Part shown: positions 1,170 to 38,425 of the stretch, piece after piece
Numbering within the stretch: position 1 is the first letter of the stretch
How the letters are laid out: every line of letters begins with the position of its first letter
Assembly: GCA_029569255.1 (NCBI GenBank)
Contig: JAKQUO010000019.1
Span: 23,175 to 87,174 of the forward strand
Length of the DNA: 64,000 bases
Origin: Acidobacteriota bacterium
GTDB lineage: Bacteria; Acidobacteriota; Aminicenantia; Aminicenantales; Saccharicenantaceae
Reading direction: 5' to 3'
The notes under the pieces: model-generated
What the model was told of the DNA's origin: nothing
The model's input: only the letters and a program-made list of their open reading frames with translations
The model's database searches: none
Position numbers and translations under genes: made by a program

Positions 1170-3986
1170 GTGAAAACCCGCTTTTTCGCCGTTCTCATCA
1201 TCATGGCCCTGGCCGCCGCGCTGCCCTCGACGGCCGCGGCCCAGCTCAATCAGACGGGCACGCTGGCCGGCACGGTCACGGACAGCGACAAGCTGCCCTT
1301 GCCGGGGGCCACGGTCACGATCAAGTCCCCGGTCATCATCGTGCCCCAGATGGACGCGATCACGGGCCCTAAGGGGAATTACCGCTTCCTGTCCCTTCCC
1401 CCCGGGCTCTACGAGGTCGCCTTTTCGCTCGACGGCATGGACACGCTCGTCCGGAAGGACATCCGGATCAGCGTCGCGCAGACGACGACGATCGACGCCG
1501 TCCTGGAGCCGTCCACGCTGAGCGAGACGGTCGTCGTCGTCGGGGAGAGCCCGACGATCGACGTCAAGTCCACGACCAAGGCGACCAACCTGGACCGGAC
1601 GTTCATCGCCGCCCTGCCCACGGCGCGGAACCTGGACGCCTACTTCAACATGGCCCCCGGCGTCACCGCCGAACGGAACCCCAACGGGCTGATGTCGTCC
1701 GCCAGCGGGAGCGGCGTCCGCGACAACAGCTACAATCTGGACGGGGTGAACATGACGGCGCCGGACGTCGGCACCCAGCAGTTCCAGTTCGGCACGGACA
1801 TCATCGACGAGATCCTGATCCAGTCGGGGGGGATGCCGGCGGAGTTCGGGGACGCCATGGGGGCCTCGATCAACATCGTGACGCGCTCGGGCGGGAACAG
1901 GCTGAGCGGGTCGGCCAGCGTCTATTACAACACCCTCAAGCTGCAGTCCAACAACACGGCCGGCACGCCGCTGGAGGGGGCCAAGAGCGGCTACCAATAC
2001 GTCCTCGAACCCGGGATCGCCCTGGGAGGGCCGATCGCCAAGGAAAGGCTCTGGTTCTTCACCAACCTGAGCCTGAATTCCCGGTCCAGGCTCATCCCCG
2101 GCTTCCCCTACGACCAGCCCGCGCAGGTCCCGGCCAAGGAGACCCGCTACTACCCCTATGTCAAGCTGACCTTCCAGCCCAGCCAGGCCCACCGGTTCTC
2201 GGCCTCCTACAACTACTCCGATTACCTCCAGGACAACGCCGGCGCCAACCGGTTCGCGACCGAGAGCACCACGGTCAAGTGGACGGCCCCGACCCACATC
2301 CTCAACCTGCAATGGACGGCGACGTTCTCCCCGACCATGTTCGCCGATTTCAAGGTCGGCTACTATGTCAACAACCAGGAGCTCCGGTCGAAAGAGGACC
2401 TGCCCTTGATCGTCGAGCAGACGACCGCGCAACAGTCGGGCAGCTACGTCGGCACGGACCTCTACACGGCCGGCCGCTTCCAGACCAACGCCAACCTGAC
2501 CTATTTCGCCGACAGCTTGGCCGGGTCCCACGAATTCAAGGGCGGCGTCGAGTTCCAGGCCATCGACTCCACGCAGAGCTTCACGCCCAATGTGGACCCC
2601 CGGAACGGCATGTCGCAGATCATCACCCGCAGAGGCACGCCGCGTTACGGAGTCGTCATGGCGCCGTCGGCGAACAAGGTGGCCGGGACGAACATCCACG
2701 CCTACCTCCAGGACAGCTGGAAGCCCGCCAAGCGGCTGACGCTCAACCCGGGCCTGCGCCTGACCTACCAGAGCGGCCGCTTCCCGCCGCAGAACGAGAG
2801 CGAAGGTCCCCAGGACTTCCTGGGGGTCTCCTTCAACCGGAGCGTCACCCGGACGATCAACGCGTTCAACCGGACGGCCCTGGCGCCGCGGCTGGGCGTC
2901 ATCTTCGACCTGACGGGGGACCGCAAGACGCTGTTGAAGGCCAGCTACTCCCGCTACCTCCAGTCCAATATCATCGCCTATTACGCGTCGGCCAACCCCA
3001 ACGGTTCCTTCTCCTACGTCCAGGCCCTGGCCCCGGACTGGACCCCGGTCCCGGGCGCCTACCTCAACGCGAGCTTCCCGATCCCGGCCAAGGCGGGCTA
3101 CGACGGCGCCGGCATCAAGACCCCCTACACGGACGAATTCGCCGTGGCCGTGGAACGCGAGCTCTTTCCCGATTGGGTCCTGTCCGCCCGCTACACCCGC
3201 AAGGCGGACCGGAAGCTCATCGAGGACGTGGACGCCAACCAGCTGGACATCGACCGCCTGGCGGCCGACGGCGCGCTCGTCTGGACGAACTGGACACAGG
3301 TTCCGTTCACCGACCCCTATGACGGACAGGAGCGGTTTTTCTGGAGCATGAACGCCATCCTCCCGCCGGACTCCTACCTCATGAACCCTCCCGGGGCCGA
3401 AAGGGACTTCAAGGGCGTCGAGCTCACCCTGAACAAGCGCTATTCCCGGGGCTGGTCCCTCATGGCCAGCTACGTCTGGCAGGACGCGGTCGGGCTCATC
3501 TCCACCTCTTGGGGCGGCAGCACCGCGAATTCCGGCCTCTTCGACAACCCGAACTCCCACATCAACCAGTACGGCCACGCGTCGCTGTCGCCGCGGTCCC
3601 AGGTCAAGGTGCTGGGCATGGTCGCCGGCCCCTGGGGCATCAACGTCAGCGGGTTCTTCCGCTATTTCACGGGACAGCGCTACACGCGGACTCTGCACAG
3701 CTCGGACATGGGGGTCACGCTGGCTCAGGGGAACGAGACCATCAACGCCGAAAAGAGGGGCTCCCGGGAGCTCCCGAGCCAGGTCATCCTGGACCTGAGG
3801 CTGGAAAAGCTCTTCCGCCTGGGCGGGACCAAGGTGGCCTTCTTCGCCGACTGCTTCAATCTCTTCAACGGGAACAAGGCCACCTCCGTCCACACCCGGA
3901 GCGGCAGCCCGGTCTACGTGTTCGGGCAGATGACCGCGATCCAGGACCCGAGGGCCGTCCGGCTCGGGTTCCGTTTCGAGTTCTAG
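1170..3986 (+). CDS. TonB-dependent receptor with N-terminal carboxypeptidase-regulatory-like domain
   Basis: 938 aa with a signal peptide, a CarboxypepD_reg-like N-terminus (TLAGTVTDSDKLPLPGATVTI), plug and barrel, and an OMP-type C-terminal RLGFRFEF. GTG start follows a GAGGAGGA RBS. Confidence 0.85.
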   Translation: MKTRFFAVLIIMALAAALPSTAAAQLNQTGTLAGTVTDSDKLPLPGATVTIKSPVIIVPQMDAITGPKGNYRFLSLPPGLYEVAFSLDGMDTLVRKDIRISVAQTTTIDAVLEPSTLSETVVVVGESPTIDVKSTTKATNLDRTFIAALPTARNLDAYFNMAPGVTAERNPNGLMSSASGSGVRDNSYNLDGVNMTAPDVGTQQFQFGTDIIDEILIQSGGMPAEFGDAMGASINIVTRSGGNRLSGSASVYYNTLKLQSNNTAGTPLEGAKSGYQYVLEPGIALGGPIAKERLWFFTNLSLNSRSRLIPGFPYDQPAQVPAKETRYYPYVKLTFQPSQAHRFSASYNYSDYLQDNAGANRFATESTTVKWTAPTHILNLQWTATFSPTMFADFKVGYYVNNQELRSKEDLPLIVEQTTAQQSGSYVGTDLYTAGRFQTNANLTYFADSLAGSHEFKGGVEFQAIDSTQSFTPNVDPRNGMSQIITRRGTPRYGVVMAPSANKVAGTNIHAYLQDSWKPAKRLTLNPGLRLTYQSGRFPPQNESEGPQDFLGVSFNRSVTRTINAFNRTALAPRLGVIFDLTGDRKTLLKASYSRYLQSNIIAYYASANPNGSFSYVQALAPDWTPVPGAYLNASFPIPAKAGYDGAGIKTPYTDEFAVAVERELFPDWVLSARYTRKADRKLIEDVDANQLDIDRLAADGALVWTNWTQVPFTDPYDGQERFFWSMNAILPPDSYLMNPPGAERDFKGVELTLNKRYSRGWSLMASYVWQDAVGLISTSWGGSTANSGLFDNPNSHINQYGHASLSPRSQVKVLGMVAGPWGINVSGFFRYFTGQRYTRTLHSSDMGVTLAQGNETINAEKRGSRELPSQVILDLRLEKLFRLGGTKVAFFADCFNLFNGNKATSVHTRSGSPVYVFGQMTAIQDPRAVRLGFRFEF

Positions 3987-3999
3987 AAGGACCGGGCTC

Positions 4000-5454
4000 A
4001 TGGCGAGGCACCCGAACGACTCGCGGGGCCGGGGGCGAAAGCTCCCGGCCCCGTGGATCCTGGCGGCGGCCGTCCTGGCCTTCTGCTCGCTCTGCGCCTG
4101 CGCCCGGACCGCCCGGGACGCCCAGGGCGCCCCGGACGTCGCCGCCGCGATGGACGCCTATCTCACGGCCGCCCACAAGCTCCAGTGGTTCAGCGGGAAC
4201 GTCTTCGTCGCCCGCGGCGGCCGGGTCATCCTGAACAAGGGCTACGGCCTGGCCGATTACGAGCTCGGCGTCCCGTTCACGCCCCGGACCAAGTTCCGCC
4301 TGGGCTCGGTCACCAAGCAGTTCACGGCCATGGCCGTCCTCCAGCTCGAAGAGAAAGGCCTGCTCAAGGTCGCGGACACGGTCCGGTCGGTCTTCCCCGA
4401 TTACCCGGAGGGCGACCGGATCACCATCCACCATCTCCTGACGCACACGGCGGGCATCCCCAACTTCACCTCGTTCCCGGATTACCCGAAGGCGATGCTC
4501 TTCCCGACCTCGGTCCAGGAGGCGGTCGACCGGTTCAAGAACAGGCCGCTGGACTTCCCGCCGGGCGAGAAGTTCCGCTACAGCAATTCGGGCTACGTCC
4601 TGCTGGGGGCCATCATCGAGAAGGTCTCGGGGGAGACCTACGAGGCCTTTCTCCGGGAGAACATCTTCCGGCCGCTGGGCATGGAGGATTCGGGGTACGA
4701 CCACCGCGAGGACATCCTGAAGGACAGGGCGTCCGGCTACGAGTTCGTCAAGGACCAGAAGGTGAATGCCTCTTACGTCGACATGTCCGTCCCCTACGCG
4801 GCGGGGGCCCTCTATTCGACCGTCCTCGACCTCTACAAGTGGGACCGGGCCCTGTACACGGACAAGCTCGTGCCCCAGGCCGCGCTGACGAGGATGTTCA
4901 CGCCGTTCGATCCGCACGCCGGTCCGGCCCCCGCGACCGGGATGTCCAAGGAGACCTACGCCTACGGCTGGGTGGTCAAGTCGTCCGCCGGCCACAAGGA
5001 GATCAGCCACGGCGGCGGGGTCAACGGCTTCGCCACGCATATCGCCCGTTTCCCCGACGACGACGCCTGCGTCATCGTCCTGAACAACTTCCTGACCGCC
5101 CACATCCAGAGGGTCAGCGATTCCCTGGCCGCCCTTCTGTTCGGCCAGGCCGTCGAGATGCCGGAGGACAGAAAGCCCGTCAAGCTCCCGGCCGCGGTCC
5201 TGGATTCCTATCCGGGCCGCTATCAAGTGGAGGGCGAGCCGATGGTCTTCACCGTCGTGAGGGACGGCGACAACCTCCTGCTTCAGGCCCCCGGGCAGCC
5301 GGAGCTGGTCCTGCGGCCCCGGTCGGAGGCGGCGTTCTTCTCGAGACGGGCGAACATGGACGTGATCTTCGAGAAGGACGCCTCGGGCCGGGTCTCGCAT
5401 TTCGTCCTCGTCCGGGGCATCCTCAAGACGAAAGCCGTCCGAGTGGAGGAATGA
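4000..5454 (+). CDS. Serine hydrolase, beta-lactamase/D-aminopeptidase-like, probable lipoprotein
   Basis: SxxK active-site motif (SVTKQF) and a YxN-like region. The N-terminal signal has Cys residues resembling a lipobox. Confidence 0.8.
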   Translation: MARHPNDSRGRGRKLPAPWILAAAVLAFCSLCACARTARDAQGAPDVAAAMDAYLTAAHKLQWFSGNVFVARGGRVILNKGYGLADYELGVPFTPRTKFRLGSVTKQFTAMAVLQLEEKGLLKVADTVRSVFPDYPEGDRITIHHLLTHTAGIPNFTSFPDYPKAMLFPTSVQEAVDRFKNRPLDFPPGEKFRYSNSGYVLLGAIIEKVSGETYEAFLRENIFRPLGMEDSGYDHREDILKDRASGYEFVKDQKVNASYVDMSVPYAAGALYSTVLDLYKWDRALYTDKLVPQAALTRMFTPFDPHAGPAPATGMSKETYAYGWVVKSSAGHKEISHGGGVNGFATHIARFPDDDACVIVLNNFLTAHIQRVSDSLAALLFGQAVEMPEDRKPVKLPAAVLDSYPGRYQVEGEPMVFTVVRDGDNLLLQAPGQPELVLRPRSEAAFFSRRANMDVIFEKDASGRVSHFVLVRGILKTKAVRVEE

Positions 5455-5503
5455 CGGGCCGGGCCGCTCGTCCCGCGGGCCGGAGGAGGGAGAGGGAGTC
5501 ACG

Positions 5504-6721
5504 ATGAGGCCTTTCACGAGAACGGAGTTCCTGAAGATGCTGGGCGCGGGGGCCCTGGCCTCCGCCTTCCCGGCCCGCGCCGGCCTGGCGTCCCCGCGGA
5601 TGGAGAGCGCCAAGGCGGCCGCCAAGGCCCTGAGGATCAGGGACGTCGAGATCTATTACTGGGACATCCCTTTCAAGGAACCGCTCACCATCGCCCTGGG
5701 GACGATCACCGAAACGAACGGCGTGCTCATCCGCGTCCTGACGGACGCGGGCATCGTCGGGCTCGGCGAGTCCTGTCCGTTCGCCCCGGTCACGGGCGAC
5801 ACGCAGCAGACCAATATCGACGTCGCCCGGGACCTGCGGGAATCCCTCAAGGGCAAGGACCCCCTGGCCATCGAAAGCGCCGGGCGGACGATCGGGACGT
5901 TCGGGCGTTCGAACCCGTGCATCGTGGCCGCCTTCGACATGGCCCTCTACGACATCCTGGGCCAAGCGGCCGGGCTGCCGGTGTTCCGGCTCCTCGGCGG
6001 GGACAGGACGACCTTCGAGACGGACGCGACGACCGGCATCGACACCCCCGAGAAGATGGCCCGGAGCGCCCGGGAACATGTCGCCGCCGGGTTCAGGGCG
6101 CTGAAGGTCAAGATCGGCCAGGACCCCGACACGGACGTGGCCCGCCTCCAGGCCATCCGGGACGCCGTCGGCCCCGGCCCGGCGCTCCGGCTGGACGCCA
6201 ATCAGGGCTACACGGTGCCCCAGGCCCTCTACGCCTTGCGGCGGATGGAGAAGCTCGACATCCAGTTCTGCGAGCAGCCCGTCGTCCGCACCGACATCTC
6301 CGGCCTGAGGCAGGTCCGCGAGGCGAGCCCCATCGCCATCATGGCCGACGAATCCCTCTTCTCCCCCGTCGACGCCATCCGGCTCGTCAAGGAAGAGGCC
6401 TGCGATTATTTCAACATCAAGCTGATGAAGTGCGGCGGGATCGCCAACGCCGTCAAGATCTCGACGATCGGCGAGGCCGCCAACATTCGCTGCATGCTCG
6501 GCTGCAACAGCGAGACGCGTCTCGGGCTGACGGCCGCCGGCCACGTCCTCGGCGCGCAGAGCAACATCTTCTACGCCGACCTGGACGCCTTCCTGGCGCT
6601 GGGGATCGATCCGATCGCCGGGGGGATGACGGTCAAGAACGGGACGGCCACGCTCCCCGAAACGCCGGGGCTCGGCGCGGTCGTCGATCCGGCCTTCCTC
6701 AAGAAGCTGAAAAAGGCCTGA
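5504..6721 (+). CDS. Enolase-superfamily dipeptide epimerase-like enzyme (MR/MLE family) with Tat-type signal peptide
   Basis: KxK and DxN...E...D metal-ligand pattern typical of L-Ala-D/L-Glu epimerase-like proteins. The N-terminus MRPFTRTEFLKMLGAGALASAFPARAG resembles a twin-arginine signal. Confidence 0.75.
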   Translation: MRPFTRTEFLKMLGAGALASAFPARAGLASPRMESAKAAAKALRIRDVEIYYWDIPFKEPLTIALGTITETNGVLIRVLTDAGIVGLGESCPFAPVTGDTQQTNIDVARDLRESLKGKDPLAIESAGRTIGTFGRSNPCIVAAFDMALYDILGQAAGLPVFRLLGGDRTTFETDATTGIDTPEKMARSAREHVAAGFRALKVKIGQDPDTDVARLQAIRDAVGPGPALRLDANQGYTVPQALYALRRMEKLDIQFCEQPVVRTDISGLRQVREASPIAIMADESLFSPVDAIRLVKEEACDYFNIKLMKCGGIANAVKISTIGEAANIRCMLGCNSETRLGLTAAGHVLGAQSNIFYADLDAFLALGIDPIAGGMTVKNGTATLPETPGLGAVVDPAFLKKLKKA

Positions 6722-6776
6722 CCGCGAAGGGGACGCGCCGGCCCGGCGGTCAGGGGACACGGAAGGAGGAGGCGAC

Positions 6777-7964
6777 ATGTCCGCTCGAAGACGTTTCCTG
6801 CGACAGGCGGCCGCGGGGCTGATGGCAGTGGGAGCTGGCGTCCGCGGCCTCGCGGCCCAGTTCCTCGCCGGCCCCATGATGGAGGGCCCGCCCGGGACGG
6901 AGACGGTCATCGACGGGAAGAAGTATCTCTACTTCGGCGGCACCAGCTACTACGGGTTCCAGGGCGATCCCGCCGTGGCCGAGGCCGCCTGCCGGGCCAT
7001 CAGGAAATACGGCCTGCACCCGTCCACGTCGCGGGCCGGCTTCGGGAACTCGCCCATCTACGAGGAGGTCGAAAAGAAGGCCTCCGCGTACTTCGGCGCC
7101 GAACGCTCCTGTTACCTCGCGTCCGGCTATCTCTGCAACGCGGCCGGGTTCCAGGCCCTGGCGGCCCTGGGGCGGTTCGACGCCGTCTTCGTCGACGAGG
7201 GGTCCCACTACAGCGTCATGGACTATCTCTGCCTGACCGGCAAGCCCGTCACCCGCTTCGCCCACGCCGACCCCGACGACGCCCGCCGCAAGCTGGCCGC
7301 GGGATTGAAGGCCGGCCAGAGGCCGCTCCTCGTCAGCGACGGGGTCTTCCCGACCTTCGGGGAGATCGCGCCCGTCCCGGACTACGTGAAAGCGGTCGAG
7401 CCGTACGAAGGCTCCGTCTGGCTCGACGACAGCCACGGGGTCGGCGTTCTCGGCCCGAACGGCCGCGGCGCCTACGACCATTTCGGGCTGGCCGGGGACC
7501 GCCTCTTTTTCTGCGGCACGATGAGCAAGGCCTTCGGCTCGCACGGCGGCCTCATCCCCGGGCCGAAGGCTTTCGTCGACGAGATCCTGCGGGGCCATAT
7601 CATGAACGGGGCGACGGGCCCGACCGCGGCCGCGTCCGGCGCGGCGCTCGCCGCCCTGGACGCCTTGATGAAGCGCCCGGAGATGCGGGCGCGGCTGCTG
7701 GCCAACGCCCGGAGGCTCAAGAGCGGCCTCCGCGGGATCGGGCTGCCCGTCGCGGAGACCCCGTTCCCGGTCGCGGCCTGGACGCTCAAGAACGCCCGGG
7801 ACATGGACCGCGTCCATCGGGGCCTCATGGACCGCGGCATCTGCATCCAGCGGGCGCGGTATGTCGGCGCGGAGGCCGAGGGCGTCCTGCGCGCGGTCGT
7901 CTTCTCCACCCACACCGAGGAACAGATCGGCCGCCTGGTCTCGGCGTTGAAGGCCCTGGCATGA
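6777..7964 (+). CDS. PLP-dependent alpha-oxoamine synthase family protein (AONS/KBL-like) with Tat-like signal
   Basis: PLP-Lys motif GTMSKAFGSHGG. The N-terminus ARRRFLRQAAAGLMAVGAG fits the S/T-RRxFLK twin-arginine pattern. Confidence 0.7.
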   Translation: MSARRRFLRQAAAGLMAVGAGVRGLAAQFLAGPMMEGPPGTETVIDGKKYLYFGGTSYYGFQGDPAVAEAACRAIRKYGLHPSTSRAGFGNSPIYEEVEKKASAYFGAERSCYLASGYLCNAAGFQALAALGRFDAVFVDEGSHYSVMDYLCLTGKPVTRFAHADPDDARRKLAAGLKAGQRPLLVSDGVFPTFGEIAPVPDYVKAVEPYEGSVWLDDSHGVGVLGPNGRGAYDHFGLAGDRLFFCGTMSKAFGSHGGLIPGPKAFVDEILRGHIMNGATGPTAAASGAALAALDALMKRPEMRARLLANARRLKSGLRGIGLPVAETPFPVAAWTLKNARDMDRVHRGLMDRGICIQRARYVGAEAEGVLRAVVFSTHTEEQIGRLVSALKALA

Positions 7965-8791
7965 GCGCCGAAAACAGGGGGGCCGGCAAGAAAGCGCGGC
8001 CGCAAGCGAAAAGAGGCCCGGACGGGGCTCACAACATCTATTTCTCCAAGATCATCGACAGGGGCCTGAACATCCTCGACCTGTTCCGCCCCGAGACGAC
8101 GAGCCTGAGCCTCAAGGAGATCGCCGAGGCCACCGGGATCAACCGGACCTCGAGCTTCCGCTTCGTCGACACGCTCGTCCAGCTGGGCTATCTGAGGAAA
8201 GACCCGAGGCTGAAGCTGATCAAGCTCGGGCCAAAGGCCCTGATGCTCGGCCAGAACATCATCAACAGCTTCGATATCCTGCAGGTCGTTCAGCCGCTCA
8301 TCGACGGCGCTTTCCGGAAACACAACGTCACTATCGACTCCGCCATCCTGGACGACGTCCGGTTCGTCCGCCTCTACCGGCGGGAGGCCCGGGACACGCT
8401 GACCTTCAAGCTGCCCCAGGTCCTGCCGGCGGCCCGGGTCCATTGCATCGCCCTGAGCAAGGCCTGTCTCTCGGTCATGGACGAAGAAGACCTGGCCCGG
8501 GCGACCGCCGAGGTCTCCTTCAAGAAACGGATGCCCGGCGCGGTCGCGAATATGGCCGGCCTTCACCGCGAGCTGGAGCTGACGAGGGCGCGGGGCTACT
8601 CCATCAACAACGAGGAATACGTGGCCGGCATCATCTCCGTCGGGGCCCCGTTCTTCGGCGCGGACGGGAAGGTCCTGGGCGCGGTGTCCTTCGACGTCGT
8701 CTCGATCCGGCTCTCGAAAGAGGACGTCGAAAAGCGCTTCGCCGCGGCGGCGGTCGAGCTGGCCCGGGCCATCACCTCTTCGCTCGGCTGA
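7961..8791 (+). CDS. IclR family transcriptional regulator
   Basis: N-terminal wHTH (LSLKEIAEATGINRTSSFRFVDTL) plus a C-terminal IclR effector domain. The 4-nt overlap with the upstream gene suggests co-transcription. Confidence 0.75.
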   Translation: MSAENRGAGKKARPQAKRGPDGAHNIYFSKIIDRGLNILDLFRPETTSLSLKEIAEATGINRTSSFRFVDTLVQLGYLRKDPRLKLIKLGPKALMLGQNIINSFDILQVVQPLIDGAFRKHNVTIDSAILDDVRFVRLYRREARDTLTFKLPQVLPAARVHCIALSKACLSVMDEEDLARATAEVSFKKRMPGAVANMAGLHRELELTRARGYSINNEEYVAGIISVGAPFFGADGKVLGAVSFDVVSIRLSKEDVEKRFAAAAVELARAITSSLG

Positions 8792-9126
8792 GGGCGGCGG
8801 AAGCCACGCGGGGATGGGCTTCCGGGGAAGGGAAAACGCCCCGGCCCGACTCCCTGGCCTCCCCGCGCCATCCGGGGGATGTTCACCGCCCTCCGCGCGC
8901 TTGACTTCCTCCGATGTCCGGCCGTATTCCGGGGCCAAACAAAGGCTCTCTCACCCGCGGGCGCCGTGACCGTTTCGACGGCGCCGGCGGAAACGACCGC
9001 CGTGCGGAAGAACGCCGCCTCCTCCGCGTCCAAAGAGAAAGCCGTCCGCGCCGTTCGCGGACGGCAAGGCCCTGAAAACAGAACGTCACGGCCTGCCCGG
9101 ACCGGCCCGCGAAAGGAGCCTCGCCC

Positions 9127-11403
9127 ATGAATCCCCGGAAGTCGATGCCCGCGGTCCTTCTCCTCGTCCTGACAGCGTCCCTCCCGGCCCGGACGGCGCC
9201 GCCCCAAGCGGGGCCGAGGCCGCCGCAGCGGCCGGCCCCGCCGCGGGAGGCCCCGGCCGACTTGAAGCCGCTGCTCACGCCGGCGCAGAGCGAGATGCGC
9301 CTCGTCGCCGACAGGTACGCGGCCGACCGCGACGAATTGTCACGGTTCTATCGCCTGGCCTCGCCCGTCCGCTTCGGGCGGCTCAAGAGATTCGACCTGG
9401 ATTGGCAAGCGGCGCTGGCCGCGATCAAGCCCGCGTCTCTGAAGGCCTCGGCGAGGAAGGACCTCGAGGCCCTCCAGGAGACCGTCCAGGTCAACCTCCG
9501 ACAGCTCGAGGCCGAGGCGGCGGCCGCCGCCAGGATCGGGCCGCTGGTCCCCTTCGCGCCGGCCGTCACCGGGCTCGAGGAAGCGAGGATGCGCATGGAG
9601 ACCCTGGACGCCCGGAAGGCGGCGGTAATCCTGAGCGGGGCGGTCGACCACGCGGCCGAGACGCGCGCCAAGCTGGAATCCCTCAAGGACGGGCCGGGCC
9701 TCGCGGATATCGCCCCGGGTCGGGACGTCGTCCTCCGGGCCGCCGACGCCGTCAAGGTCCTCAGGGCCGCGCTCAAGTCTTGGCACGGCTTCTACCATGA
9801 GTACGATCCCCTGTTCGATTGGTGGCTGGCCCAGCCGTACGGGCAGGCGGACAAGGCCTTCGACGAATACGAGACCTTTCTCAGGGACACGCTCGCCCCG
9901 GCCGTGGCCGCGGAAAAGGCCCCGGCGCCGACGGCGGCCCCCATCGAGCCGGCCGCCGCGCCGCCTTTCTCCCAGGTGCCCGACCTGGCGCGCCTGATCG
10001 CTTTCCCCCAGGATGAGATGCGCGGCGTGGTGGAACGTTTCAGGGGGGGCCGGGGCTTCGGCGGCCCGGGAGGGCCCGGCGGAGCCGCCGCCCCGGACAA
10101 GGCCTACCTGTCCGCCTGGTTGACCGCTTTGAAGAAGCTCGATTTCAGGAAGCTCGGCCGGCCGGCCCAGATCGACTATCTCTACCTGCGGAACAGCCTC
10201 GAGGTCCAGCTCCGGCGGGCCGAGCTGCCGACCCGGCCGGACGTCCCGCGCAAGCCGGACGACAGCGGCATCGCAGGACAGCCCATCGGCCGCGAGGCCC
10301 TTCTGCTCGGCCTGGCGGAGGAGCTCATCCCCTATACCCCGGAGGAGCTCATCGCCGAAGCCGACCGCCAGTTCGCCTGGTGCGAAGCCGAGATGAAGGC
10401 GACGGCGGCCGAGATGGGGCTGGGCGGCGACTGGAAGGCGGCCGTGGAGAAGGTCAAGACCATGCACGCCGAGCCCGGCGGGCAGCCGGCCGTCGTGCGC
10501 GACCTGATCCTCGGGGCCGTCGATTATCTGCGGGAAAAGGACCTCATCACGGTTCCCGAGATCGAGAAGGAGACGCTCCGCATGGAGATGATGTCGGCCC
10601 GCCGCCAGCTGGTCACTCCGTTCTTCACCGGCGGCGCCCTCATCAGCGTGTCCTTCCCCACGAGCGCGATGACCACGGGACAGAAGCTCGAGAGCCTGCG
10701 CGGCAACAATATCCCCTTCTCCCACGCCACGGCCTTCCACGAGATGATCCCGGGCCACAACATGCAGAACTTCATGTCCCGGCGCTTCAGGGGCCTCGTA
10801 TCCGACCTCGGCACCTCGTTCTGGCTCGAGGGCTGGCCCGTCTATTGGGAGACCCTGCTCTACGACCTGGGCTTCGACGCCACGCCCGAGGAGAGGGTCG
10901 GCGCCCTTTTCTGGCGCATGCACCGCTGCGCCCGGATCGTGTTTTCCCTCCGGTTCCACCTGGGCGACTGGTCGCCGCAGGAATGCATCGACTACCTGGT
11001 CGAGACGGTCGGCCACGAGCGCGAGAACGCCACGGCCGAGGTCCGGCGCTCGTTCGCCGGCGGATACGGGCCGCTCTACCAGGCCGCCTACCTCGTCGGG
11101 GCGCTCCAGATGCGCGCCCTCAAGGCGGAGCTGGTGGACTCGGGGCGGATGAGCCTCAAGGACTTCCACGACGCCGTGGTCGAACGGGGCAGCCTGCCCA
11201 TCGCCCTGCTGCGGCTGTGGCTCGGCGGCGGGAAGCTCCGGGCCGACATGCCGCTCGATTGGAAGTTCCTCGGCCCGGGCACGGCCGCCGGGGACCGGCC
11301 GGCGGGGGCCTGGGGAGCCGGGGGGAGACGGGGCGTTTTACTGACCGGTCTGGACCGGGATGAGGAAAGAGGCGACGAACAGGTCGCCGTCCGTTCTCAA
11401 TGA
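9127..11403 (+). CDS. DUF885 family protein (putative metallopeptidase-like), secreted/lipoprotein
   Basis: 758 aa with a signal peptide and the conserved HEMIPGH motif of DUF885. The C-terminal tail overlaps the convergent cupin gene and may be shorter than the ORF. Confidence 0.75.
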   Translation: MNPRKSMPAVLLLVLTASLPARTAPPQAGPRPPQRPAPPREAPADLKPLLTPAQSEMRLVADRYAADRDELSRFYRLASPVRFGRLKRFDLDWQAALAAIKPASLKASARKDLEALQETVQVNLRQLEAEAAAAARIGPLVPFAPAVTGLEEARMRMETLDARKAAVILSGAVDHAAETRAKLESLKDGPGLADIAPGRDVVLRAADAVKVLRAALKSWHGFYHEYDPLFDWWLAQPYGQADKAFDEYETFLRDTLAPAVAAEKAPAPTAAPIEPAAAPPFSQVPDLARLIAFPQDEMRGVVERFRGGRGFGGPGGPGGAAAPDKAYLSAWLTALKKLDFRKLGRPAQIDYLYLRNSLEVQLRRAELPTRPDVPRKPDDSGIAGQPIGREALLLGLAEELIPYTPEELIAEADRQFAWCEAEMKATAAEMGLGGDWKAAVEKVKTMHAEPGGQPAVVRDLILGAVDYLREKDLITVPEIEKETLRMEMMSARRQLVTPFFTGGALISVSFPTSAMTTGQKLESLRGNNIPFSHATAFHEMIPGHNMQNFMSRRFRGLVSDLGTSFWLEGWPVYWETLLYDLGFDATPEERVGALFWRMHRCARIVFSLRFHLGDWSPQECIDYLVETVGHERENATAEVRRSFAGGYGPLYQAAYLVGALQMRALKAELVDSGRMSLKDFHDAVVERGSLPIALLRLWLGGGKLRADMPLDWKFLGPGTAAGDRPAGAWGAGGRRGVLLTGLDRDEERGDEQVAVRSQ

Positions 11404-37338: not shown

Positions 37339-37677
37339 ATGTTAGGCAGCATCGGCCCCGCGGAGCTCGTCCTCATCTTCGTCGTCGCCCTGCTCGTCTT
37401 CGGCCCCAAGAAGCTGCCCGAGATCGGGCGCTCGGTCGGCAAGGCCCTCCGGGAGCTCAAGAGAACCTCCGACGAGATCAAGGGCCGCATCGAGGAGGAG
37501 ATCGAGGCCTCCGAGCTCAAGGACGTCCGCAGGGACATCCAGTCCGGCGTCGACGACCTGCGCGCGGGCGTGACCGAGATCGCGACGGGCCTCACCCGCG
37601 TTCCCGAAGAGATCAAGGACGAGATCAGGAAGGATACGGAGACCCATGAGACTGGGGAAGGGCAGAAAGTCACCTGA
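37339..37677 (+). CDS. tatA: Twin-arginine translocase TatA/TatB family protein
   Basis: 113 aa with an N-terminal TM helix followed by FGPKKLPEIGRSVGKAL and an amphipathic, acidic tail. Confidence 0.75.
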   Translation: MLGSIGPAELVLIFVVALLVFGPKKLPEIGRSVGKALRELKRTSDEIKGRIEEEIEASELKDVRRDIQSGVDDLRAGVTEIATGLTRVPEEIKDEIRKDTETHETGEGQKVT

Positions 37678-37681
37678 CGAG

Positions 37682-38425
37682 ATGACCTTCCTCGAGCACC
37701 TCGAGGACCTCCGGAAGCGGCTCTTCTACTCGGTCCTCGCCCTCATCGCCGGGTTCGTGCCCGGCTGGATCTTCTCCAAGGACATCTACGCCGTCCTGGC
37801 CCGGCCGGTGACGCGCTATCTCCCCGAGGGCACGAAGCTGGCCTTCACCAGCCTGACCGCGCCCTTCATGCTCTACATCAAGGTCGCTTTCCTCGGCTCG
37901 ATCTTCCTGATGTCCCCCTTCGTCTTCCTCCAGGTCTGGTACTTCGTCGCCCCGGGCCTCTACCAGAAGGAGAGGAAGTACGTCGTCCCCTTCGTCCTGA
38001 TGACGACCTTCTTTTTCTCGCTCGGGGCCGTCTTCGGCTACTTCATCGTCTTCCCCTGGGCCTGCCGCTTTTTCCTGGCCATCGCCTCGGATTTCCAGCC
38101 GGTCATCACCGTCGACCAGTACTTCGGCCTGGCCCTGAAGGTCCTGCTGGGCATCGCCGTCGTCTTCGAGCTGCCGACGCTCGTCTTCTTCCTGGCCAAG
38201 ATGGGCCTGGTCACGGCCGGCTGGATGGTCCGGAATTTCAAGTACGCCGTCCTCGTCGTCTTCATCGTCGCCGCCGTGATCACGCCGACGCCCGACGTCG
38301 TCACCCAGAGCATCGTGGCCGTCCCGATGCTGGTCCTGTACGGGCTGAGCATCCTGATCGCGCTGGCCGTCGGCCGGGGCAAGGAGCGCAAGCGGCGGGC
38401 CGGGGACGCCGGGCCGGCCGGATGA
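37682..38425 (+). CDS. tatC: Twin-arginine translocase subunit TatC
   Basis: Six TM helices, with the TatC signatures LEHLEDLRKRL and FFFSLGAVFGYFIVFP. Confidence 0.85.
   Translation: MTFLEHLEDLRKRLFYSVLALIAGFVPGWIFSKDIYAVLARPVTRYLPEGTKLAFTSLTAPFMLYIKVAFLGSIFLMSPFVFLQVWYFVAPGLYQKERKYVVPFVLMTTFFFSLGAVFGYFIVFPWACRFFLAIASDFQPVITVDQYFGLALKVLLGIAVVFELPTLVFFLAKMGLVTAGWMVRNFKYAVLVVFIVAAVITPTPDVVTQSIVAVPMLVLYGLSILIALAVGRGKERKRRAGDAGPAG

Follow-up and report, generated by a model that had tools for sequence, protein, structure and literature searches.

Alpha-oxoamine synthases are textbook cytoplasmic enzymes that use thioesters of coenzyme A (CoA) or acyl carrier protein (ACP), and, as far as we know, neither thioesters of this kind nor ATP or NAD(P)H are available in the periplasm. 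What, then, could an enzyme of this fold do when it carries an export signal? The question is raised by a stretch of 64,000 nucleotides from an uncultured Aminicenantes bacterium (contig JAKQUO010000019.1 of assembly GCA_029569255.1, positions 23,175 to 87,174), referred to here in its entirety as the window. Five co-directional open reading frames (ORFs) occupy positions 1170-8791 of its plus strand and encode a TonB-type receptor, an S12 hydrolase, a dipeptide epimerase (EPI), a pyridoxal 5'-phosphate (PLP) enzyme of the alpha-oxoamine-synthase fold (AONS-like), and an IclR regulator. An earlier note on this DNA had proposed the positions and families of these ORFs, and both were borne out by Pfam and NCBIfam matches for all five. 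We consider it somewhat probable that the cluster serves to salvage D-amino-acid peptides in the periplasm, as a module whose PLP enzyme works without a thioester.

Export signals of the two enzymes

The AONS-like enzyme (395 aa, positions 6777-7964, plus strand; Aminotran_1_2) carries a predicted twin-arginine translocation (Tat) signal at residues 1 to ~27 (nt 6777-6857). Its N-terminus reads S-A-R-R-R-F-L-R-Q, followed by an Ala/Gly-rich h-region, an Arg, and then L-A-A/Q. Of the 120 closest homologues (51-74% identical), 94 have a twin-arginine motif among their first 30 residues, and 93 of those 94 also possess a basic residue (R/K) in the c-region. The h-region is weakly hydrophobic, with a Kyte-Doolittle maximum, KD(10), of 1.83, as compared to 3.19, 2.88, and 2.77 for the Sec-type signals of the receptor, the hydrolase, and an exported DUF885 protein encoded downstream of the cluster. 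Judged by these features, the N-terminus is a textbook Tat signal by which the enzyme would be exported, and this route fits an obligate-dimer holoenzyme that loads its cofactor in the cytoplasm. As had been noted earlier, tatA (37351-37485, plus strand; PF02416, 66 bits) and tatC (37694-38326, plus strand; PF00902, 225 bits) are encoded in the window, both above the Pfam cut-offs; a further tatA-like gene above the cut-off is located on contig C49 of the genome.

EPI (405 aa, positions 5504-6721, plus strand; MR_MLE_N/C) has a predicted signal at residues 1 to ~29 (nt 5504-5590). Twin-arginine signals had been ascribed to both enzymes, and this applies to the AONS-like enzyme but not to EPI, whose N-terminus F-T-R-T-E-F-L-K contains a single Arg, with R-T in place of RR. 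The motif [ST]-R-x-x-F-[LM]-K is kept in 112 of 120 EPI homologues (56-73% identical), and the residue that follows the motif Arg is typically Lys (K 84, N 11, Q 6, S 5, G 2, H 2, T 1, R 1). The h-region of EPI has a KD of 1.60 (family median 1.57), and a basic c-region is found in 80 of 113 sequences. The pattern suggests a Tat-like signal from which the second arginine is systematically missing and which may lead to either the Tat or the Sec route. This R-K type may be a weak Tat signal tuned to the export of an assembled oligomer.

EPI might instead leave the cytoplasm unfolded via Sec, its Tat-like n-region being a relic and the PLP enzyme the sole Tat substrate. Such a route is consistent with the presence of RR in only 1 of 112 family members, and Mg2+ can bind after export, cytoplasmic folding not being needed. 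However, the F-[LM]-K of the Tat consensus, conserved in all 112 of these sequences, is not required for Sec, and the h-region is weak when compared to nearby Sec signals (median 1.57 versus 2.5-3.2), in addition to the frequent basic c-region. Furthermore, natural Tat signals without RR exist, such as K-R in Salmonella TtrB and R-N-R in penicillin amidase. We regard Sec export of EPI as less likely than not, though it is the likeliest of the alternatives.

A genome-wide census with a Tat regular expression gave 125 matches, which were mostly false, and no count was drawn from it. A complex prediction for mature EPI and mature AONS-like enzyme gave a score of 0.00, which has no bearing either way on binding or co-export.

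The same genome encodes a second exported EPI outside the window, which is 59% identical (contig C61, 37898-44287; locus L100, 4898-11287) and forms part of a row of murJ, a major facilitator superfamily (MFS) transporter, EPI, and a C69 dipeptidase. Its N-terminus reads M-S-L-T-R-K-G-F-L-K, and the neighbouring C69 dipeptidase has a signal peptide just ahead of its catalytic Cys. This second EPI is the genus-typical copy; EPI is present in 22 of 24 genus members.

Partners and proposed substrates of the putative module

EPI, of the MLE subgroup in the enolase superfamily, matches the solved cytoplasmic dipeptide epimerases 3jva of E. faecalis, YkfB of B. subtilis (1jpm/1tkk), and 3q45 of C. 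hutchinsonii with E ~1e-78, and these matches begin at EPI residue 44-48; when compared to the solved enzymes, EPI adds a 29-residue signal and a linker of ~15 residues. The catalytic residues are identical, and the set, as aligned with YkfB and 3jva, is complete: K201-x-K203, the metal ligands D231, E257, and D282, K306, and D359-x-D361, the DxD motif for the dipeptide ammonium group. At the position of YkfB Arg24, which we take to be the residue that binds the Glu side chain, EPI has a Gly (A-L-G-T-I), as is the case for 3jva. EPI scored 235 bits with NCBIfam model NF041118 (cut-off 500) and 143 bits with the DgcA model (cut-off 400).

The pair of EPI and the AONS-like gene recurs in several phyla. 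It was studied in 80 related loci that, together with the window, form a set of 81, for which flanks of up to 8 kb on each side were analyzed by tblastn and ORF clustering. EPI was found within the flanks of the AONS-like gene at 36 of the 81 loci, often directly adjacent, and these loci belong to Aminicenantes, Terriglobia, Vicinamibacterales, Bacteroidota, and metagenome-assembled genomes (MAGs) labelled Clostridiales or Eubacteriales. The signal state of the two proteins was concordant in 34 of the 36 paired loci, with signals on both in 18 and on neither in 16. Pairs with both signals are from Acidobacteriota and Aminicenantes, and signal-less pairs are from Bacteroidota and others. Among 40 relatives of this genome, the AONS-like gene is present in 18 and EPI in 33. 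All 18 relatives with the AONS-like gene also possess EPI, 17 of them on the same contig and at most 15 kb apart, and none has the AONS-like gene alone.

The remaining genes of the cluster encode the hydrolase, the receptor, and the regulator. [quoted passage not shown] Its best solved relative is Pab87 (2qmi, 3e-45, residues 68-433, C-terminal domain included), followed by ClbP, alkaline D-peptidase, R61 DD-peptidase, and D-amino-acid amidase. By these matches, its best solved relatives are D-stereospecific peptidases, but the S12 family also contains esterases and beta-lactamases. Pab87 of Pyrococcus abyssi degrades D-amino-acid peptides, and its gene is located near those of a PLP aminotransferase, a D-aminoacylase, and a Dpp transporter (PMC2651629). 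The window hydrolase shares the three motifs and the C-terminal lipocalin-type domain with this Pab87/CubicO type of S12 D-peptidase; however, Pab87 is a cytoplasmic octamer, whereas the window hydrolase is predicted to be exported, and the CubicO motif FFYLN corresponds to FRYSN in the latter. The predicted signal (~residues 1-36) is hydrophobic and Sec-type. The hydrolase had been described as a lipoprotein, which was not supported: its only candidate, L-C-A-C, is non-canonical with respect to the lipobox [LVI][ASTVI][GAS]C, A-C-A/R corresponds to an ordinary signal-peptidase-I site, and no Cys occurs in the plain signals of the 64%-identical orthologues from L051 and L057.

The TonB-dependent-type outer-membrane receptor (938 aa, positions 1170-3986, plus strand) is composed of an N-terminal CarboxypepD_reg domain (8e-17) and an OMP_b-brl_4 barrel (6e-45, 154 bits), and its Plug domain scored 22.7 bits at a cut-off of 23.9. 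Orthologues that are 62-67% identical adjoin IclR and S12 hydrolase genes in the Aminicenantes loci L051, L053, and L057. The IclR-family regulator (276 aa, positions 7961-8791, plus strand) has HTH_IclR and IclR_C domains and scored below the cut-offs of PcaR/BhcR-like models. Its orthologues (52-54% identical) are located behind the AONS-like gene in L051 and L057, and are adjacent but divergent in L053. In the Acidobacteriota loci, the AONS-like gene often has S12 paralogues and CarboxypepD_reg receptors nearby.

The contexts of signal-less copies in other phyla are informative as to the substrates. The L076 locus of Bacteroidales contains a row of genes for an AmiA-like amidase, DUF1684, EPI, the AONS-like enzyme, an NhaC-type antiporter, an S13 DD-carboxypeptidase, an S66 LD-carboxypeptidase, an EPI-like protein, and an NlpC/P60-SH3 protein. 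The order in L088 is NlpC/P60, EPI2, EPI, and AONS-like, and in L069 an S66 gene is found 4 kb off. The Bacteroidota pair thus adjoins YkfA-like (S66) and YkfC-like (NlpC/P60-SH3) genes, as in the ykfABCD murein-peptide pathway, which is, however, without an AONS-fold PLP enzyme. In L020 and L096, the AONS-like gene has genes for Dpp-type peptide ABC transporters as neighbours, namely dppA/B/C-type genes after it in an Armatimonadota locus and a DppA-type gene upstream in a Holophagaceae locus. Another example is that of the gammaproteobacterial loci L054, L055, and L056, in which dgcN and dgcA directly precede a single AONS-like gene (DgcA 404 bits, cut-off 400; DgcN 476, cut-off 480). DgcN and DgcA convert D-Glu to N-acetyl-D-Glu and then to N-acetyl-L-Glu, as a route from D-Glu to L-Glu (PMC10845958). 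That pathway also employs an MR/MLE racemase on an N-substituted D-Glu, whereas the window EPI is of the dipeptide-epimerase type and its cluster is without DgcN. Since DgcN requires acetyl-CoA, the DgcN-DgcA pathway is impossible in the periplasm. The AONS-like enzyme is placed in D-amino-acid peptide salvage because every one of its constant partners acts on N-substituted D-Glu or on D-containing dipeptides. The theme of D-amino-acid and cell-wall peptides, raised in the earlier note, is thus backed by the murein-peptide loci of Bacteroidota, by dgcN-dgcA in Gammaproteobacteria, and by the kinship with Pab87.

Bacteroidota also possess a second DgcA-like MR/MLE protein (L076, 13239-14378, minus strand; L088, 5698-6834, plus strand), with ~205 bits at a cut-off of 400. 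In L076, its N-terminus has the Tat motif K-T-R-R-R-T-F-I-K and a lipobox-like G-T-A-C, and its gene adjoins NlpC/P60 and LD-carboxypeptidase genes.

Taken together, the cluster can be read as an operon-like nutrient-salvage module in an uncultured Aminicenantes bacterium of anaerobic sludge. The TonB-type receptor would import D-amino-acid peptides into the periplasm, with cell-wall debris as the likeliest source, and the exported S12 hydrolase would trim them. EPI would then invert the C-terminal residue of dipeptides, such that ordinary L-specific dipeptidases and transporters could finish the process. The AONS-like enzyme would cross the membrane via Tat in folded and presumably PLP-loaded form. 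The IclR protein, translationally coupled to the AONS-like gene, presumably controls the module.

The same proteins could also serve for a different imported amide or ester, such as a peptide antibiotic, a D-amino-acid siderophore or lipopeptide, or a synthetic oligoamide, in which case the link to peptidoglycan would not apply here. S12 proteins include esterases, nylon-oligomer hydrolases, and ClbP-type prodrug peptidases, siderophores are also imported by TonB receptors, the Gly at the Arg24 position speaks against strict Ala-Glu specificity, and the cluster itself has no murein hydrolase gene. However, the receptor is of the CarboxypepD_reg nutrient-uptake type, control is by IclR, and the cluster contains no Fur or ECF-sigma partner. 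In addition, murein-peptide enzymes, DgcN/DgcA, and Dpp transporters are the partners that recur elsewhere, and the second EPI of the genome adjoins murJ and a dipeptidase. Such other substrates are therefore judged to be improbable.

The possible reaction of the PLP enzyme

The AONS-like enzyme is related to, but distinct from, canonical alpha-oxoamine synthases. It shares with BioF, Kbl, serine palmitoyltransferase (SPT), 5-aminolevulinate synthase (ALAS), and CqsA the fold, the T-x-S-K lysine motif, the stacking His, Asp-x-x-His, and the C-terminal Arg, but is only 23-33% identical to them and below all NCBIfam equivalog cut-offs (206 bits at a cut-off of 426 for bioF, 177 at 460 for Kbl, 191 at 640 for SPT, and 116 at 339 for ALAS). 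Its AlphaFold model has a predicted local distance difference test (pLDDT) value of 89 and template modelling (TM) scores of 0.83-0.88 to SPT, KBL, and AONS at 23-29% identity, those to SPT, ThAOS, and KBL being 0.86-0.88; the closest solved relatives are serine palmitoyltransferases. Matches in the protein atlas were to generic 'aminotransferase class I/II' clusters only. The genome encodes, in addition, two Kbl proteins above the cut-off and one SPT/BioF-like protein. The neighbours of the AONS-like gene are racemases and peptidases, as opposed to biotin, threonine, or lipid genes.

To define the family, 52 AONS-like members were compared to E. coli BioF and Kbl and to three paralogues of this genome. 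The catalytic core is invariant, consisting of the PLP lysine K251, the stacking His H144, D217-x-x-H220, and the C-terminal carboxylate-binding Arg R372. The entire family, signal-less members included, is without the N-terminal helix, the first 20-27 residues being absent, and begins at BioF residue 21-26. Two residues shared by all five of the canonical enzymes in the comparison are replaced: BioF Asn47 (of S-N-D/N-Y-L-G) is Thr in 46 and Val in 6 of the 52 members, and BioF Ser179 (of F-S-M-D-G) is Pro in all 52. The aromatic residue at BioF position 264 (Tyr264/Phe273) is Gly or Ala in the family. The literature searched, in which subscription journals are thinly covered, contained nothing relevant on the role of BioF Ser179 or Kbl Ser185.

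In a tree of the mature parts, no fewer than 5 changes have to be assumed for the signal state, of which 3 fall on well-supported branches, and the Tat signal of the AONS-like family is found in at least two clades. Exported and cytoplasmic AONS-like members interleave at 45-60% identity and keep the same partner, and most likely they share one reaction. If the reaction is the same in both compartments and thioesters, ATP, and nicotinamide cofactors are absent from the periplasm, it should need none of them. PLP alone permits racemisation or epimerisation, decarboxylation, retro-aldol cleavage, and elimination, as well as transamination if a keto acid is supplied. Our guess is that the AONS-like enzyme acts on the alpha-carbon at a free amino group, by epimerisation, racemisation, or exchange. 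The amino group would be either that of the N-terminal residue of the same dipeptides or that of a D-amino acid released from them, for instance D-Glu or D-Ala. The BioF product 8-amino-7-oxononanoate, which is bound as an aldimine, has a near isostere in the Ala-Glu dipeptide. In its most specific form, the proposal is that of a PLP epimerase or racemase acting at the free alpha-amino centre of a dipeptide N-terminus or of free D-Glu or D-Ala, which has abandoned acyl-thioester chemistry and, with EPI, would provide a two-enzyme, cofactor-self-sufficient conversion of D-dipeptides to L,L forms on either side of the membrane. This specific form is speculative, and we hold it to be doubtful.

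Periplasmic amino-acid racemases are known from other families. The broad-spectrum enzymes Vibrio BsrV and Pseudomonas Alr/Bsr are PLP proteins with the fold-type III alanine-racemase fold that are exported by Sec. The AONS-like enzyme has PLP and a predicted periplasmic location in common with them, but it has a fold-type I alpha-oxoamine-synthase fold and a Tat signal.

Alternatively, the exported enzyme could be a true alpha-oxoamine synthase that forms a C-C bond by a Claisen reaction in the periplasm, the acyl donor being, for example, an acyl-enzyme or lipid-linked (thio)ester and the product an aminoketone or sphingoid-like compound; a C-C bond-forming step outside the cytoplasm had also been suggested in the earlier note. 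The intact fold and core (K251, H144, D217, H220, and R372) and the serine palmitoyltransferases as closest solved relatives agree with this idea. However, a periplasmic acyl-CoA or acyl-ACP pool is not known to us, and the recurrent neighbours did not include any lipid, ACP, or acyl-CoA ligase genes. Moreover, the family, cytoplasmic members included, is without the N-terminal helix and the Asn and Ser of the canonical enzymes, and its scores are far beneath the SPT, BioF, and Kbl cut-offs. The C-C bond-forming step is thus the less likely of the two activities that were originally considered, and we rate a periplasmic Claisen reaction as very unlikely.

Several observations weigh against a thioester-free salvage of D-amino-acid peptides by this cluster. 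A normal alpha-oxoamine synthase would likewise possess the conserved Arg372 and catalytic core, and a Claisen reaction appears compatible with the sequence. The assignment of EPI to its family is assured, but L-Ala-D-Glu as its substrate is not, because Gly replaces YkfB Arg24. An exported EPI without an AONS-like gene is present in 15 of the 40 relatives, and since none shows the reverse, the PLP enzyme is an accessory to the epimerase and not the core step. The signal state is discordant in L039 and L087, and after phylogenetic correction the co-variation amounts to 3 independent contrasts, 2 in the same direction and 0 in the opposite one, which is not significant. The AONS-like operon of Ignavibacteriota and Melioribacter has no EPI. 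Finally, single-Arg signals of E. coli used Tat once their hydrophobicity had been raised (PMC5539426), and the h-region of EPI, unlike those signals, is not more hydrophobic.

In Ignavibacteriota, the AONS-like gene lies between genes for an FAD/FeS oxidase and a diaminopimelate (DAP)/ornithine-type decarboxylase. The row is conserved in the Ignavibacteriota/Melioribacter loci L050, L065, L066, L071, L074, L080-L082, L084, L085, L090-L092, and L095 and consists of a glycosyltransferase 2, DUF4922, a 977-aa FAD-oxidase/4Fe-4S fusion, a signal-less AONS-like protein, and the DAP/ornithine-type decarboxylase. It may represent a different use of the same PLP family, and the reaction is not settled by the row.

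Another set of observations relates to the history of the window gene. The AONS-like protein of the window groups with Terriglobia-type sequences and those of two other Aminicenantes MAGs (70-71% identical). The AONS-like proteins of genus relatives form a different clade (~50% identical) with a longer Tat N-terminus of the G-R-R-E-F-L-A-K-S type. The gene order of receptor, S12, EPI, AONS-like, and IclR is a cyclic permutation of the order AONS-like, IclR, receptor, S12, and EPI in L051 and L057. Gene replacement or transfer of the window gene is likely, as far as these sequence groupings indicate.

The locus, its occurrence and its meaning

Both long gene starts are preceded by Shine-Dalgarno stretches that were read from the sequence. 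The stretch GGAAGGAGGAGG (6761-6772, plus strand) ends 4 nt upstream of the AONS-like start codon ATG at 6777, and the strong stretch GGAGGAGGGAGAGGGAG (5482-5498, plus strand) precedes the start codon of EPI at 5504. In the public gene call (P0121, 394 aa), EPI starts at Met12, which removes the conserved targeting motif, and 8 of the 120 EPI homologues are shortened in the same manner. The long EPI start is favoured over Met12 because GGAGGAGGGAGAGGGAG precedes 5504. That the signals arise from wrongly called starts, with both enzymes being cytoplasmic, a weakness foreseen in the earlier note, is hardly credible: despite the P0121 call and the existence of truly signal-less AONS-like family members (361-366 aa), the Shine-Dalgarno stretches support both long starts, orthologues keep both signals, the N-terminal motifs are conserved down to ~50% identity in more than 90 sequences per family, and signal-less forms are separate clades that start exactly at the mature part. 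Automatic annotation with shortened starts will under-report export in the EPI family.

The five genes are separated by 13, 49, and 55 nt, and the AONS-like stop and the IclR start overlap by 4 nt. The G+C content is ~65-72% over the cluster region. Downstream, after 335 nt, follows the gene of the exported DUF885 protein (758 aa, positions 9127-11403, plus strand; PF05960, 3e-47), which has a Sec-type signal. As a possible member of the module it was rejected, since in none of the 80 related loci was it found next to the AONS-like gene, and it is possibly unrelated. The 335-nt gap contains, at 9041-9065 of the minus strand, a terminator-like 10-bp G+C-rich hairpin with a T-run; such sites are rarer overall than in shuffled sequence. 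A promoter scan upstream of the receptor had as its sole find a sigma-70-like site on the minus strand (1072-1044).

The genome bin that holds the window has a size of 2.74 Mb and is 94% complete, and the closest public relatives of the cluster genes are from Candidatus Aminicenantes MAGs. Near-identical DNA (98% of sampled words) was found in 15 metagenome runs of sludge and anaerobic digesters from at least 7 studies, any of which may be the source sample. Contigs identical to the window in RNA-seq libraries of three sludge studies touch all cluster genes, albeit piecemeal and with DNA carry-over being possible. The EPI/AONS-like junction is bridged by two such contigs from one study, with more than 31 nt on either side, and a single transcript is not demonstrable from contigs. 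In the same libraries, no valid bridging contig was found for the receptor/hydrolase, hydrolase/EPI, and AONS-like/IclR junctions; uncovered stretches carry no meaning.

Each of the gene families is already known, and TonB-linked periplasmic catabolic loci are common. In the literature searched, with its thin coverage of subscription journals, nothing relevant was found for dipeptide epimerases with twin-arginine signals, oxoamine synthases in the periplasm, or Glu epimerases with AONS, and there was no description of a Tat-exported alpha-oxoamine-synthase subfamily, its pairing with the epimerase or DgcA, or the R-K type EPI signal, which is weak evidence of novelty. With over 100 Tat-like signals whose second arginine is replaced, the EPI family forms a natural series and offers useful material to study what twin arginines are needed for. 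The AONS-like enzymes form a large subfamily in which Tat signals are routine in Acidobacteriota and Aminicenantes and which is tied to D-amino-acid enzymes in at least 5 phyla, and this points to an undescribed activity of the alpha-oxoamine-synthase fold. In soils, peat, and sludge, D-amino-acid peptides of cell walls constitute a major pool of recalcitrant nitrogen, and a pathway in the periplasm that is supplied by a TonB-type receptor would go some way towards explaining how these bacteria, which are abundant and mostly uncultured, subsist on microbial necromass.

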